A stretch of 64,000 nt of DNA from a virus (Duplodnaviria; Heunggongvirae; Uroviricota; Caudoviricetes): the IMG/VR virus record IMGVR_UViG_3300033069_001798, positions 1-64,000 of that record; one strand, given 5' to 3'. Shown here piece after piece: positions 1 to 12,018 of this stretch (position 1 is the stretch's first letter; each line of letters opens with the position of its first letter). A model generated the notes under the pieces. The model saw only the letters and a program-made list of their open reading frames with translations, searched no databases and was not told the origin of the DNA. The translations under genes were made by a program, and so were the position numbers.

Positions 1-1
1 T

Positions 2-235
2 GTTCTGGTCGTTCCCACGTTCAAGAGAATTTCAATGAATCCGCACGAGGCAGATCACTTCCTCAAAGTGAGGCAATCAAAGATTGCAGATGATTTCGCC
101 GTAAACTTCTGCGTTGCTGTATACGTAAACAGCTTCAAAGTTGACGGTTTGCAGTACGTGTGGATCTTGCTACCAGACGGTCGTGTTATCTCTACGTACG
201 CCGGCTCCGTTAAAGAGCTGCAGTGGGTTGAATGA
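2..235 (+). CDS. GDLV-family small protein (array member 1, 5'-partial)
   Basis: Frame is open to the window edge: ..VLVVPTFKRISMNPHEAD..YVWILLPDGRVISTYAGSV. Stop TGA 233-235 overlaps the next ATG (ATGA). Confidence 0.6.
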   Translation, partial: VLVVPTFKRISMNPHEADHFLKVRQSKIADDFAVNFCVAVYVNSFKVDGLQYVWILLPDGRVISTYAGSVKELQWVE

Positions 236-459
236 ATATCGAACCTGGAGATCTTGTCTGCTCGAAGAGCAAGTTCATATCAACCTGCAATCCGATATCT
301 GGTTATTACCTGGGTCAGTGCTTGGTTGACGATGAAGTGTTGCTGTGCGTCGGTGTCTTCATTATCGAGCCTACCCAGTTTCATCGCAATCGCATCATGG
401 TGATGCGCGAAACTGGTGAGCTGGTTGTTACGTACGTCGACAACGTGTTTTTCATCTGA
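232..459 (+). CDS. GDLV-family small protein (array member 2)
   Basis: 75 aa; MNIEPGDLVCSK..LLCVGVF..GELVVTYV; ATGA overlap upstream. Confidence 0.7.
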   Translation: MNIEPGDLVCSKSKFISTCNPISGYYLGQCLVDDEVLLCVGVFIIEPTQFHRNRIMVMRETGELVVTYVDNVFFI

Positions 460-471
460 TGAGGTGTCGCT

Positions 472-633
472 ATGAAAGTTGGTGACTTGGTTGTCCCACG
501 AAAAAATTATTTGCCAGAAGCGTGCATCATCATAGGGTTTGGTCAGCTCAAGTCAGGAGCGACTTGGGCTTGGGTCTTGCTGTTCAGCGGACGCGTCAAC
601 AGATACTACGTTGGTGCACTAGAGCTGCTATGA
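472..633 (+). CDS. GDLV-family small protein (array member 3)
   Basis: 53 aa, below the track cutoff, read by hand: MKVGDLVVPRKNYLPEACIIIGFG..WAWVLLFSGRVNRYY. GAGGTG lies 5 nt upstream of the ATG. ATGA overlap with the next gene. Confidence 0.65.
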   Translation: MKVGDLVVPRKNYLPEACIIIGFGQLKSGATWAWVLLFSGRVNRYYVGALELL

Positions 634-848
634 AGATCGGCGATCTGGTCTGCAGCGACTCGAGAGATCTGTACGTCCTCACGTTGAAAGCACCCTATGA
701 ATATGGTCTTCACGGCTTCGAAGTTCCCGGTTCTGGACCTTTCGTGTACGTTGGTATTAGCGGTCGTGGCAACGGAAGCTTGGTTCTTATCTTGCTTCCG
801 TCTGGTGTCTTGGTAGAAGTTCATCCATCAAGACTAAGGCCTTTGTAA
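630..848 (+). CDS. GDLV-family small protein (array member 4)
   Basis: In-frame ATG inside track ORF 522..848; MKIGDLVCSDS..FVYVGISG..LVLILLPSGVLVEV; ATGA coupling at 630-633. Confidence 0.7.
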   Translation: MKIGDLVCSDSRDLYVLTLKAPYEYGLHGFEVPGSGPFVYVGISGRGNGSLVLILLPSGVLVEVHPSRLRPL

Positions 849-876
849 CGCTGTGCACTGGTGCCACAAAATGGGT

Positions 877-882
877 TACAAT
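877..882 (+). promoter_or_regulatory. TACAAT (-10-like) element 6 nt upstream of ATG 889
   Basis: ggTTACAATtgttagATG lies in the 40-nt gap after member 4. The same hexamer recurs 3-9 nt before the first start codon of other + strand units (14776, 15872, 17812, 21853). Confidence 0.35.
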
Positions 883-888
883 TGTTAG

Positions 889-1137
889 ATGGCAGTGACA
901 CTTCCGGGTGACATGGTGATTCTACAATCGCATGGAAGTACGTACGTGACGACCATTTCACTGCATGAGGACGGCGCGCGGCTCGTGTATAAAGATTTCA
1001 AGCCCACAGATGAAGAATGCCGAGCAGCTGGCACTTTTCTTGGCACGGTCACGTGGGATGATTGTAACCTCGCTGTCGTATTGTTCCGCGGTGAGATCTG
1101 GGTCTCTTTCCCGCACCAGTTCAAGGTTGTCAAGTGA
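889..1137 (+). CDS. GDLV-family small protein (array member 5)
   Basis: 82 aa; MAVTLPGDMVILQ..LAVVLFRGEIWVSF; first gene after a 40-nt gap. Confidence 0.65.
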   Translation: MAVTLPGDMVILQSHGSTYVTTISLHEDGARLVYKDFKPTDEECRAAGTFLGTVTWDDCNLAVVLFRGEIWVSFPHQFKVVK

Positions 1138-9846: not shown

Positions 9847-10080
9847 ATGAACAATTTTTCTCCGGGTGACTTAGTCACCACGACAACGAGGCTAGCATTT
9901 CGTGCCATCGAAGATCGATCATCGCACTACATCACGCTACCTGGGACATTGCTACTGATCATCCAGATCATGGACATGGAAGATGTCGATCCCTATGCTC
10001 AGGGTCGCGGTGCACTATGCTTCTATGCACCCATGGGTCACACGATACTGTGCAACCTTGACTTCTTGAAGCCGGCATGA
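9847..10080 (+). CDS. GDLV-family small protein (array member 43)
   Basis: 77 aa after a 39-nt gap, GGAG 4 nt upstream; MNNFSPGDLVTTT..LLLIIQIM..ALCFYAPMGHTILCN. Confidence 0.65.
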   Translation: MNNFSPGDLVTTTTRLAFRAIEDRSSHYITLPGTLLLIIQIMDMEDVDPYAQGRGALCFYAPMGHTILCNLDFLKPA

Positions 10081-10304
10081 TGTACCCAGGAGACGTGTTC
10101 GCGTACACAGTTTCACCAAAGGCTTGGTACTTGTGCATCGGCGTCAAGGAGCTCGGGCGCAATAACATCTGGGTCACTTGCGTATTCTTCAAAAGTAACG
10201 TAAGCGCTCGTGTGTACGAAGTGCAGATGAAGGCACATGACCCGCAGTGCACCAACGGCGCCAAGATCGTGCTCTCTAGCTGCCCACAGAATATTCAGCG
10301 ATAA
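10077..10304 (+). CDS. GDLV-family small protein (array member 44)
   Basis: 75 aa; MMYPGDVFAYT..WYLCIGVK..IWVTCVFFKSNVSARVY; atypical tail. Confidence 0.55.
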   Translation: MMYPGDVFAYTVSPKAWYLCIGVKELGRNNIWVTCVFFKSNVSARVYEVQMKAHDPQCTNGAKIVLSSCPQNIQR

Positions 10305-10353
10305 TGCGTTGCAGTTATCCACAGCCTAATTCAGTGAGTAAAATGAGAGCATC

Positions 10354-10581
10354 GTGACTGACACCTTCAAGAGCGGTGATCTCGTTCGCCTCGAAGCGGG
10401 CGGCAAGTTCTTGAGCGTGAACATATATTCGATAAAAAGCAACGATCAATGCATAAAAGGTCTAGATCGAAACAGCATCGCCCTAGTGATCAATTACATT
10501 GATGGTTCTTTGCTGCTTCTGGTGAACGAATCAGTCGGTTGGATTCACGTTCCGATATTTCTTGGGATACGTCACCTATGA
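10354..10581 (+). CDS. GDLV-family small protein (array member 45, 'GW' subfamily)
   Basis: 75 aa, GTG start after a 49-nt gap; VTDTFKSGDLVRLE..IALVINYI..LLLLVNESVGWIHV. Confidence 0.65.
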   Translation: MTDTFKSGDLVRLEAGGKFLSVNIYSIKSNDQCIKGLDRNSIALVINYIDGSLLLLVNESVGWIHVPIFLGIRHL

Positions 10582-10811
10582 GCAGAATAAAACCTGGTGA
10601 TCTCATTCAACTCAATGAAAACAGCCCATACGCAACTGTGTACCTCTTCACACTTCATAGCGCGCGTATGGGCACTACCGGCAAGGAAAGAAGAGTTACG
10701 AAAGCTGATCTTTGCACCGTGATATCAATCGTCAGTGATGAACTGTTCATATTGTGCAATGATATCATTGGTTGGACTTCACTTACGTCGTACTTTAACG
10801 TGGTATCATGA
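10578..10811 (+). CDS. GDLV-family small protein (array member 46, 'GW' subfamily)
   Basis: ATG 10578 (ATGA overlap) inside track ORF 10539..10811; MSRIKPGDLIQLN..LCTVISIV..LFILCNDIIGWTSL. Confidence 0.65.
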   Translation: MSRIKPGDLIQLNENSPYATVYLFTLHSARMGTTGKERRVTKADLCTVISIVSDELFILCNDIIGWTSLTSYFNVVS

Positions 10812-11038
10812 TCCTCTACAAGCCTGGATCTCTAGTGCAATCTTCGCACGAAGTTCACCTTTACTTGAGGTCTAAAACTAATGGCGACATCGATGGCTCG
10901 GCCGGCTTTGTGCTTGGTGGAACGCTCATGACAGTGATATCAGTGAATGAAACTGAAGAAGGTAGCGTAGATTTGCTGGTCTACACGGGTGATTCGATTG
11001 GTTGGGTTTACTCTCGCTACGTTAGATTCATCTCATGA
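10808..11038 (+). CDS. GDLV-family small protein (array member 47, 'GW' subfamily)
   Basis: 76 aa; MILYKPGSLVQSS..LMTVISVN..DLLVYTGDSIGWVYS. Confidence 0.7.
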   Translation: MILYKPGSLVQSSHEVHLYLRSKTNGDIDGSAGFVLGGTLMTVISVNETEEGSVDLLVYTGDSIGWVYSRYVRFIS

Positions 11039-11268
11039 TCGCTGGTGAGCTCGTCAAGCCGTGCAAAAACATAATCGGCGTGTATTACATCGGAACCAGT
11101 CGTAATATTGATGGCGAAATATACTTCTACAAGCACAATAAAATCGTGAAGCGCACCGACATGTACGTGTACATCACAAACATTAAGTGGGCCGGCACTG
11201 ACTACAGCATGCTTCTTCTAGGCGATCAGATGGTGTATTTGTACTCTGGAGAAGTTGATCCGATATGA
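11035..11268 (+). CDS. GDLV-family small protein (array member 48)
   Basis: 77 aa; MIAGELVKPC..MYVYITNI..SMLLLGDQMVYLY. Confidence 0.65.
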   Translation: MIAGELVKPCKNIIGVYYIGTSRNIDGEIYFYKHNKIVKRTDMYVYITNIKWAGTDYSMLLLGDQMVYLYSGEVDPI

Positions 11269-11483
11269 AATCAGGAGACCTTCTTGTCTTCAACAGAAGA
11301 AAGCGGTTCGTGAGCGTCTACAGATCCAAGCCAGACATCACAACAACCAGGGGCAAAGTCATGCTAGGTGCTCACTTGGCGGTTGCTCTCATCGTTGAAC
11401 CGATGCACTCTTTCGTGCTTCTGACAGGCAATGGTGATATCAGGATGCGATGGGTTGAAACCCAGGATCTGACTGAGGCATGA
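11265..11483 (+). CDS. GDLV-family small protein (array member 49)
   Basis: 72 aa; MKSGDLLVFN..LAVALIVE..SFVLLTGNGDIRMRW. Confidence 0.7.
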   Translation: MKSGDLLVFNRRKRFVSVYRSKPDITTTRGKVMLGAHLAVALIVEPMHSFVLLTGNGDIRMRWVETQDLTEA

Positions 11484-11713
11484 CTTACAGCGTAGGCGAT
11501 CTAATCAAGCTAAGCCCACACATGTATCACACATCGATGCGTGTTGGCAACTTGCGCGAAGTACACGGCAAGGTAGTTAACATCATGCCAGATGATCTGA
11601 TGATTGTTCTTGGTGGATTTATCCTTGCTGAAGAGTACCAGTACTTGTTTGTCATGAGTGCGAGTCACAATGAGATTGGTTTTGTTTCTGCACGTGCTGT
11701 GGAGCGCACATGA
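11480..11713 (+). CDS. GDLV-family small protein (array member 50)
   Basis: 77 aa; MTYSVGDLIKLS..LMIVLGGF..YLFVMSASHNEIGFV. Confidence 0.7.
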   Translation: MTYSVGDLIKLSPHMYHTSMRVGNLREVHGKVVNIMPDDLMIVLGGFILAEEYQYLFVMSASHNEIGFVSARAVERT

Positions 11714-12018
11714 ACATCAGAGACTTGAAGTCTGGTGATCTGATCGTCTGCACAAGGCGTTCTTCTCTGTGGTATCCTACAACGAACCGGTACTATCATG
11801 GTGAAGTTGTGCACAAGGGTGACATAGCGATCGTTGTCTCGTACAACGTGCAGCACAGCGATTCGTCATCTGCAGACATGTACAGCATAACAGTCATCTG
11901 GAGGGGTGCAGCGTGCAGGACTCACGTATCTATCGATGCAACAGCGCTAGCATGGTCGACAATCGACGGTGAACCGCTAGAGATATTACTTTTTGTACAA
12001 GCAGCTGCTAGTAGGTGA
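11710..12018 (+). CDS. GDLV-family small protein (array member 51, last)
   Basis: 102 aa; MNIRDLKSGDLIVCT..IAIVVSYN..YSITVIWRGAACRTHV; longer C-terminal tail. Confidence 0.65.
   Translation: MNIRDLKSGDLIVCTRRSSLWYPTTNRYYHGEVVHKGDIAIVVSYNVQHSDSSSADMYSITVIWRGAACRTHVSIDATALAWSTIDGEPLEILLFVQAAASR

Follow-up and report, generated by a model that had tools for sequence, protein, structure and literature searches.

Accordion-like gene gain is regarded as a way in which large phages enlarge and adapt their genomes, and the documented phage cases are, to our knowledge, short-lived single-gene amplifications in the laboratory. What does such an expansion look like when it is natural and long-standing, and what might it be for? 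The question is raised by a 64,000-nucleotide stretch from a tailed phage (Caudoviricetes; positions 1 to 64,000 of IMG/VR record IMGVR_UViG_3300033069_001798), here called the window. Its first 12 kb (1-12018, + strand) hold the right-hand part of a tandem array, namely 51 same-strand mini-genes of a predicted SH3-like family, GDLV. The array undergoes birth-and-death evolution, its units having been deleted, inserted, replaced, frameshifted and fused between strains.

Open reading frames (ORFs) of the + strand were listed over 1-13.5 kb and tiled by dynamic programming, which gave an unbroken chain of 52 ORFs (35-12018) with 4-nt ATGA/GTGA overlaps at 33 of 51 junctions. Start codons were then curated by the N-terminal motif, resulting in a set of 51 ORFs of 53-105 aa (median 77). 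Among the 50 curated junctions, 31 are 4-nt ATGA/GTGA overlaps, 41 show an overlap of any kind and nine are gaps of 7-60 nt, so that the counts of the initial annotation, made from the sequence alone (51 ORFs, 32 of 50 overlaps and eight gaps), were essentially right. Coding density across the array is 97.7%, and each unit, 160-310 bp in size, is predicted to encode one stand-alone SH3-like small β-barrel.

Contrary to the first assumption, base 1 is not the left boundary of the array. The frame of the first unit (2-235, +) is open from base 2, and the left edge of the window therefore truncates the array. The GD motif of this unit lies off-window; its full orthologue is an 81-aa protein (P0031), and the orthologous gene is L005:9759-10004, where L005 is the 313,755-bp JGI contig Ga0119868_1000001. 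Both this contig and a 92-kb Logan contig share 96-99% identity with the window. In related contigs, same-strand mini-genes go on for 5-9 kb upstream of window base 1. Profile-supported members extend for another 5.1 kb (L005:4677-9769); beyond them, a head segment of 3.1 kb (L005:773-3862) contains motif-only relatives, and a divergently oriented gene (L005:1-551) forms the left boundary. With ~25 further units upstream in L005, the full array would span about 17-21 kb and comprise roughly 75-85 units, in a huge phage whose contig is at least 314 kb long. The head segment also encodes a 301-aa protein (L005:1938-2843) with two GD-motif regions, NIGDKIV and EPGDLLF, recognized by motif only, and between them a Lys/Arg-rich linker with three RGRP AT-hook-like motifs. 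This protein has no Pfam match, and its orthologue (L013:1126-1731) is found in L013, a distant relative that lacks the array.

One family of divergent coding sequences

A three-part layout had been described for every ORF, and its N-terminal part holds. Within their first 40 residues, 48 of 50 ORFs contain the motif G-[DSTEA]-[LIMVY]-h, compared with a mean of 4.9 and a maximum of 12 in shuffled proteins. The central h-h-h-h-[GCS] strand can be seen in 38 of the 51 ORFs; only 13 have the strict distal h-[PS]-[DSNTP]-[GC] motif, and the claim for every ORF was therefore overstated. The repetition was also said to exist at the level of protein rather than nucleotides, and this is what we observe: Tandem Repeats Finder reported no tandem DNA repeat in the array, and the sole recurring DNA element is a 20-nt start motif, ATGAAGATCGGCGATCTGGT, present in eight copies at 75% identity or more. 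Identity between paralogues is ~10-35%.

Homology among the units was assessed by several profile and pairwise methods. All-versus-all phmmer found 22 pairs at E ≤ 1e-3 and none in the shuffled set. A jackhmmer search over the six-frame translation of the whole window, seeded with the compact 59-aa member m09 (1686-1865, +), recovered 26 array ORFs and two ORFs at 22.7-23.2 kb, with no false match. In a leave-one-out hidden Markov model (HMM) test, each of 53 sequences was compared with 200 of its own shuffles, and 430 ORFs of the same size from elsewhere in the window served as decoys. Fifty of the 53 scored above all 200 own shuffles and 42 reached E ≤ 0.01, while the top decoy, at 11.5 bits, was a GD-motif ORF (21864-22064) that is likely a member itself. 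Leave-one-out profiles support ~45 of the 51 array ORFs as members of one family, confirming the mutual homology proposed in the initial annotation. The array ORFs that lack this support are 2247-2414, 2399-2635, 7835-8080, 9302-9550, 10077-10304 and 11265-11483.

Conserved across units are the first strand (M-K-x-G-D-L-V), the strands of the hydrophobic core and a short strand at the C-terminus; surface residues, net charge and an insert of 0-40 residues after strand 1 differ from unit to unit. Isoelectric points (pI) range from 4.1 to 10.1 with a median of 6.5, 19 of 53 members being acidic and eight basic; no membrane segments were found in family members.

Comparison with a 96-99% identical contig gave dN/dS values of 0.36 for the annotated frame and of 0.93 and 1.61 for the two alternative frames, and substitutions at codon positions 1, 2 and 3 number 69, 40 and 104. 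This frame specificity shows that the array ORFs are real coding sequences. The array genes are under moderate purifying selection, with a dN of 0.014 and a dS of 0.040. The gene immediately downstream, which resembles major vault protein (MVP), has a similar dS (0.035) and a dN of 0.001; amino-acid change in the array is thus ~14 times faster. Relative to L008, a more divergent relative, dN/dS of single units ranges from 0.11 to 0.71, and several units fall at 0.11-0.20 over a dS of 0.2-0.4.

Structure prediction with AlphaFold2, run with the paralogue alignment, gave a confident five-strand barrel for m09 (predicted local distance difference test, pLDDT, 92.4). A typical 77-aa member, m30 (6589-6822, +), is predicted to form the same barrel (pLDDT 82.3), with an extra hairpin, predicted at lower confidence, in the variable insert that follows strand 1 (residues 11-33). 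Five or six antiparallel strands in a partly open barrel of ~60 residues, the features of an SH3-like small barrel, are present in these models. Foldseek matches in the PDB include the eS4 KOW, ERCC6L2 Tudor, PWWP and R67 DHFR domains, with template modeling (TM) scores of 0.72-0.79 but E values of 5.7e-3 or above; NusG/Spt5 KOW and CarD were matched as well. Fold matches in BFVD are many uncharacterized phage proteins of 50-75 aa, including one DUF2158 protein. From these matches, the predicted fold is best described as a generic SH3-like small barrel, which agrees with the initial guess of a small SH3/Tudor/KOW-like barrel.

The initial annotation did not recognize the family, and neither did sequence searches. 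When all 53 members were run against Pfam-A by hmmscan at E ≤ 0.1, no family was matched, including KOW, Tudor, LSM, SH3b and DUF2158. A PHROG scan of every member gave no match, and the best E value of the family profile against PDB sequences was 0.19. Matches number 16 in 5.8 billion proteins and 42 in 1.84 billion cluster representatives. Of these 42 representatives, ~8 are unrelated repeat proteins and the rest are mostly single-unit orthologues from close relatives, with a few more distant. P0017, P0035, P0038, P0048, P0054 and P0055 were rejected as relatives, their long multi-stretch matches being those of unrelated repeat proteins. P0023 (727 aa) contains six tandem repeats, each starting F-x-[IV]-G-D-L-V-K-L-K ('GDLVKLK'), and may be a fused distant relative of the array module. 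Overlapping mini-ORFs of the MKPGDLVRL...VDG+hGWVYE type were seen in other samples (L011, a 626-bp contig of ENA ERZ2945142, and P0052 and P0053); they hint at more distant, poorly assembling arrays.

Duplication and recombination at the conserved gene start

The distance from a unit to its best paralogue has a median of 4 units, compared with 15.8 in permuted data (P<0.0005). Often the best paralogue is two units away, as in the pairs 14-16, 15-17 and 17-19, indicating duplication of two-gene blocks; units 14-15, 16-17 and 18-19 (2632-4123, +) are three copies of one such block. The block of units 4-5 is echoed 35 units away, at units 39-40. The pattern of similarity shows that the family grew by local duplication of one-gene and two-gene blocks.

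Whole groups of units come and go between haplotypes. Indels in L006, L007 and L012 are 2.5-2.8 kb long and cover ~10-12 units each: compared with L005, L007 is short of 2.67 kb and L006 of 2.82 kb, while the IMG/VR contig L012 has an extra 2.66 kb (~11 units) relative to the window and is without window 3885-6419. The junction of the 11-unit indel is marked by a chimeric unit (2247-2414, +), whose N-terminus, MNDVSFDVGDLL, matches one L012 unit and whose remainder matches another 2.66 kb away. The segment missing from L012, approximately 3885-6419, lies within units m19-m29 (3860-6592, +), and there the N-terminus of m19 (VLTGDL) is fused in frame to an m29-like body. All four mapped breakpoints are located in or directly after the conserved M-K-x-G-D-L coding motif, within the 10-20-nt start motif, and each of the four junctions is an intact in-frame chimera, for example MKTGDL joined to VYWIHDE.... 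The sequence of this joint is ATGAA..GG.GATCT. Unequal recombination at the conserved start motif always regenerates an intact, in-frame chimeric gene. GATC is over-represented throughout the window (observed/expected 2.3-2.6, in the array and elsewhere), and its presence in the start motif is thus not array-specific.

Other units show decay or replacement. Unit m23 (4940-5184, +) is frameshifted in this lineage: it has an ORF at 4940-5155, and its C-terminal strands are read from ORF 5035-5184. The latter terminates in an ATGA overlap with ATG 5181, the true start of m24. The m23 orthologue in L008 is intact, at 81 aa. A hypervariable three-unit segment (8078-8910, +) contains a degenerate or fused unit (8296-8642). 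This segment has no megablast match in an otherwise 96-99% identical contig, and its L005 counterparts are diverged and rearranged. The order of m22-m34 is kept in L008, with orthologue identities of 47-94%, one unit inserted and two units replaced by one. Orthologues are conserved in order at dS values up to above 0.8. Gene order is also the same in independent assemblies (JGI 3300014059, SRR1145916, SRR32380203, SRR24742812 and IMG/VR 3300033121), and it recurs in the divergent SRR23702538, SRR23702537 and JGI 3300045318.

The array thus combines the features by which viral tandem multigene families are recognized: mutual homology on one strand, content variation with pseudogenes and chimeras, and local duplication. 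The earlier analogy to accordion expansions fits in part. Copy number and content vary, and expansion and contraction proceed through recombination at short homologies, with four of four breakpoints at the conserved motif. The analogy does not extend to the copies themselves, which are old and individually conserved as orthologues; near-identical tandem copies with a dosage effect were not found.

Expression signals and possible function

Shine-Dalgarno (SD)-like 4-mers are found 4-18 nt upstream of 19 of the 50 starts, compared with a background of 9.4% (p=5e-8), and they are often the GAG-GTN codons of the preceding gene's conserved C-terminal Glu-Val. Two sequence signs of a coupled polycistron, stop-start overlaps and SD-like sequences within the preceding gene, are thus both present. 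The array contains 14 promoter-like sites in a sigma-70 scan (13.5 expected) and nine terminator-like sites in an intrinsic-terminator scan (9.7 expected), both at the level of chance. Taken with the shared strand and the overlaps at 41 of 50 junctions, these signals are consistent with a single long polycistronic message translated by re-initiation. The largest intergenic gap (60 nt; 4403-4462, +) has CGCTGTGCAC at 4420 and a palindrome, GCTGTGCACAGC, at 4421-4432, and the other of the two largest gaps (849-888, +) opens with CGCTGTGCAC. Exact copies are confined to these two array gaps (849-858 and 4420-4429) and were not taken as promoter evidence. With one mismatch allowed, the window contains 16 matches against 6.5 expected, above all 100 shuffles, and CGCTGTGCAC is possibly a candidate regulatory site. 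Another sequence, GGTTACAAT, was considered as a gap promoter motif and rejected (14 matches against 7.9 expected, with one of 100 shuffles reaching 14).

We lean, by a modest degree, towards a birth-and-death family of small binder proteins, co-transcribed and translationally coupled, that serves host takeover or counter-defense. The binder function is its least certain part and is inferred from the usual interaction role of the fold, the heterogeneous surfaces on a fixed core, the non-structural neighborhood, the turnover between strains, and precedents in T4/T6 and in large eukaryotic DNA viruses (10.1101/2022.04.14.488369, PMC13096335, PMC13359090, PMC2839356, PMC4122927). Such an array would be transcribed as one or a few long early or middle transcripts and translated by coupling, through the ATGA/GTGA overlaps and GAGG-type SD sequences in the C-terminal Glu-Val/Leu codons of the preceding gene. 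Each barrel would be a small protein-binding module, the array a repertoire of binders against variable host targets, and the conserved 5' joint would let the phage population reshuffle that repertoire. A bolder form, in which ~80 mini-binders with their first seven codons as a frame-preserving joint track variable defense, surface or takeover targets of the host by swapping, deleting and fusing units, is offered only tentatively. In that form the array would be the phage equivalent of variant multigene families known from eukaryotic pathogens and large DNA viruses.

Several observations weigh against the binder reading. No unit has a dN/dS above 1 relative to L008, and the variable insert carries no significant excess of nonsynonymous changes between haplotypes (odds ratio 1.46, p=0.07; 1.11, p=0.51), so an arms-race signature is not demonstrated. 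The most diverged orthologue pairs in the L008 comparison also have high dS, indicating mosaic ancestry and not fast adaptive change. About six profile-negative and several decayed units mean that the array may in part be drifting, and a generic SH3-like fold does not separate binding of protein from binding of nucleic acid or of other ligands.

A first alternative is a set of nucleic-acid-binding, ribosome-associated or RNA polymerase-associated factors, in which KOW/Tudor/Sm-like barrels would coat or organize phage DNA or retune host transcription or translation. The eS4 KOW, NusG/Spt5 KOW, ERCC6L2 Tudor and CarD folds are among the top PDB matches, the phage encodes its own IF-1 nearby, and the paralogue L005:1938-2843, with an orthologue in L013, carries three RGRP AT-hook-like motifs together with its GD-motif regions. 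We nevertheless regard this role as unlikely. The median pI is 6.5, with 19 of 53 members acidic and eight basic, no conserved basic patch is present, and no Pfam KOW, Tudor or LSM match appears even at E 0.1; in the paralogue, DNA contact would come from the AT-hooks, which suggests another job for the barrel. The MVP-like gene raises a separate option, that the units are cargo or partners of a vault-like shell, or else virion or ejected proteins. On the same strand, 60 nt separate the end of the array from this gene downstream, and the adjacency is kept in L003 and L012. However, the MVP-like genes of L013 (64% identity) and of LR756500/LR756501 (45%) have no adjoining array, the 64-kb window has no recognized structural genes, and a structural role would not usually involve 70-80 different cargo proteins whose copy content varies freely, leaving this option improbable.

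We would give about the same low weight to a largely functionless, self-propagating expansion, driven by the recombinogenic 5' motif, with most units drifting to decay. Such drift would explain why dN/dS, at 0.36, is ~13 times that of the neighboring gene, why multi-unit deletions are tolerated, and why frameshifted, fused and six profile-negative units occur. It does not explain a dN/dS clearly below 1 in frame and ~1 or more out of frame, the several units at 0.11-0.20 over a dS of 0.2-0.4, the reading frame preserved in all mapped rearrangements, or the 97.7% coding density with start-stop overlaps preserved. Slightly less credible still is a recent dosage accordion, that is, a transient amplification of one gene like that of poxvirus K3L or T4 tifA. 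Close haplotypes do differ in copy number, recombination does use short homologies, and phages offer known examples of the process (10.1101/2022.04.14.488369, PMC13096335), but this account is contradicted by the divergence data: paralogues are ~10-35% identical, no DNA repeat extends past the 20-nt motif, units are conserved as ordered orthologues at dS up to above 0.8, and charge and insert vary widely from unit to unit. Chance ORFs or a misassembled repeat can hardly be behind the array, given frame-specific purifying selection, profile homology well above shuffles and decoys, a confident structure prediction for m09, the lack of long DNA repeats that could mislead an assembler, and the same gene order across independent assemblies from several runs and collections.

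Genomic setting and known systems

Nine GD-motif ORFs are dispersed in the window at 15.6-16.7 kb and 21.9-23.1 kb, and three of them are profile-supported. The supported members are 21864-22064 (+, 13.8 bits with the array HMM), 22718-22957 (+, 39.5 bits) and a 65-aa member, MKFQVGDLV..., on the opposite strand (22946-23143, −, 38.7 bits); the member at 22718 has no relatives outside its own cluster. Two + strand ORFs at 22129-22494 and 22460-22714 carry the GD motif only, as do four within 15580-16720 (+; 15580-15852, 15869-16348, 16323-16511 and 16472-16720), which are not significant against the array HMM. In L013, whose MVP-like gene is 64% identical, the equivalent 10 kb has only ~8 dispersed GD-motif ORFs among unrelated genes. 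The expansion is lineage-specific, as the array HMM found nothing upstream of the L013 MVP gene or around the MVP homologues of LR756500/LR756501. No near-identical DNA was found among GenBank phages.

The gene directly downstream of the array (12079-14775, +; 899 aa in the JGI contig) is the vault-protein homologue named in the initial annotation. It has a Pfam MVP_shoulder match at 2e-30, vault repeats and an SPFH domain, lies outside the GDLV family and has no PHROG match. Its closest GenBank relatives, at 45% identity, are the uncultured 'huge phage' records LR756500/LR756501 (462 kb and 735 kb), and it is 64% identical to IMG/VR UViG_3300032053_000165. The GC content of this segment is 55-56%, against 47-50% in the array. 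An 841-aa open frame runs antisense to it (11986-14511, −) and is probably a by-product of the GC-rich codon usage of the vault-like gene, not a gene.

A GIY-YIG (SegE-like) homing endonuclease (16611-17480, −) lies inside a + strand block, 4.6 kb from the array. The IF-1 homologue (20788-21297, −; 169 aa) matches Pfam eIF-1a/IF-1 over residues 24-87 (E 1.3e-18). Bacterial IF-1 is much shorter, and the ~80 codons at the C-terminus of this homologue overlap the + strand ORF 19955-21013 at its end. The sign of the GC skew switches near 20-23 kb, where the gene strand switches. Further along, all on the − strand, are genes for a Cpn60 chaperonin (23535-25160), an AAA ATPase (26666-28558), a 5'-3' exonuclease (35648-36841), an RNA ligase (37655-38677) and an endonuclease (25506-26438). 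A dCMP/cytidine deaminase (60880-62199, −; 5e-23) has a fused N-terminal region with a sub-threshold match to Pfam Tn7_TnsA-like_N (E 4.1e-5; 24.5 bits, the curated cutoff being 26.5), an unusual domain combination. No structural genes were recognized in the 64-kb window and a tRNA scan found no tRNA genes; by its gene content, the window is a non-structural region of nucleic-acid metabolism.

The initial annotation recognized no described phage locus of this kind, and our literature searches, which were limited, turned up none that is comparable. The process (tandem multigene family, short-homology recombination) and the fold are already known. What is new is the family itself, its scale in a phage (~80 units, 17-21 kb) and the use of a conserved gene start as the recombination joint. 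Since the ~80-unit array is natural and long-standing, the whole expansion process can be read from its sequence, from local block duplication and deep divergence on a fixed scaffold to frame-preserving recombination, pseudogenization and mosaic alleles in several haplotypes. It also adds a small-protein family absent from Pfam and PHROGs, in which a single scaffold comes in dozens of natural variants. If the units do bind host proteins, they would provide a ready-made library for finding new host-takeover and anti-defense targets and a natural example of scaffold-based binder diversification.

The closest parallels outside phages are the ASFV MGF360/505, poxvirus and giant-virus expansions, which are tandem, same-strand, diverged paralogues that vary between isolates and have a presumed host-interaction role (PMC13359090). 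The array shares with these families its tandem diverged paralogues, its variable content and its recombination-driven gain and loss. Its own features are the tailed-phage host genome, the single barrels of ~75 aa, the overlapping stop and start codons, and the conserved coding motif as recombination joint; unlike a fresh K3L-type accordion, its copies are ancient and individually conserved. Fold, size and an often present G-D-x-V first strand are shared with stand-alone SH3-like phage mini-proteins of the DUF2158/YodC type, to which the array family has no sequence-level match. Named BFVD matches come from Edwardsiella phage PEi20, Aeromonas phage phiA8-29, Bacillus phage G (gp12) and Serratia phage X20 (DUF2158).

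Among phages, T4 amplifies and deletes segments through 6-10-bp microhomologies and so escapes toxIN (10.1101/2022.04.14.488369). In T4/T6 (tifA, SegB-driven), unequal recombination at 6-12-nt homologies makes and removes tandem small-gene units of a large lytic phage (10.1101/2022.04.14.488369; PMC13096335), and Seg endonucleases are reported to promote T6 segmental amplification (PMC13096335). Recombination at short homologies and a SegE-like gene 4.6 kb away are points of likeness. However, the T4/T6 cases are identical copies of one known anti-defense gene on a laboratory timescale, whereas the array is a standing, diversified family of ~80 members. In the hyperplastic regions of T4-type phages, small ORFs are reshuffled modularly between close relatives via short conserved motifs (PMC2839356, PMC4122927), and the array resembles these early promoter-stem-loop (PeSL) cassettes in that small lineage-specific ORFs are shuffled through short motifs at gene boundaries. 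An early promoter with a stem-loop between ORFs was not detected, promoter- and terminator-like sites being at chance, and most array genes overlap, leaving no room for an intergenic cassette. The hyperplastic regions hold mutually unrelated ORFs joined at an intergenic promoter-stem-loop, whereas the array consists entirely of paralogues, and its motif is the first ~7 codons of the genes themselves.

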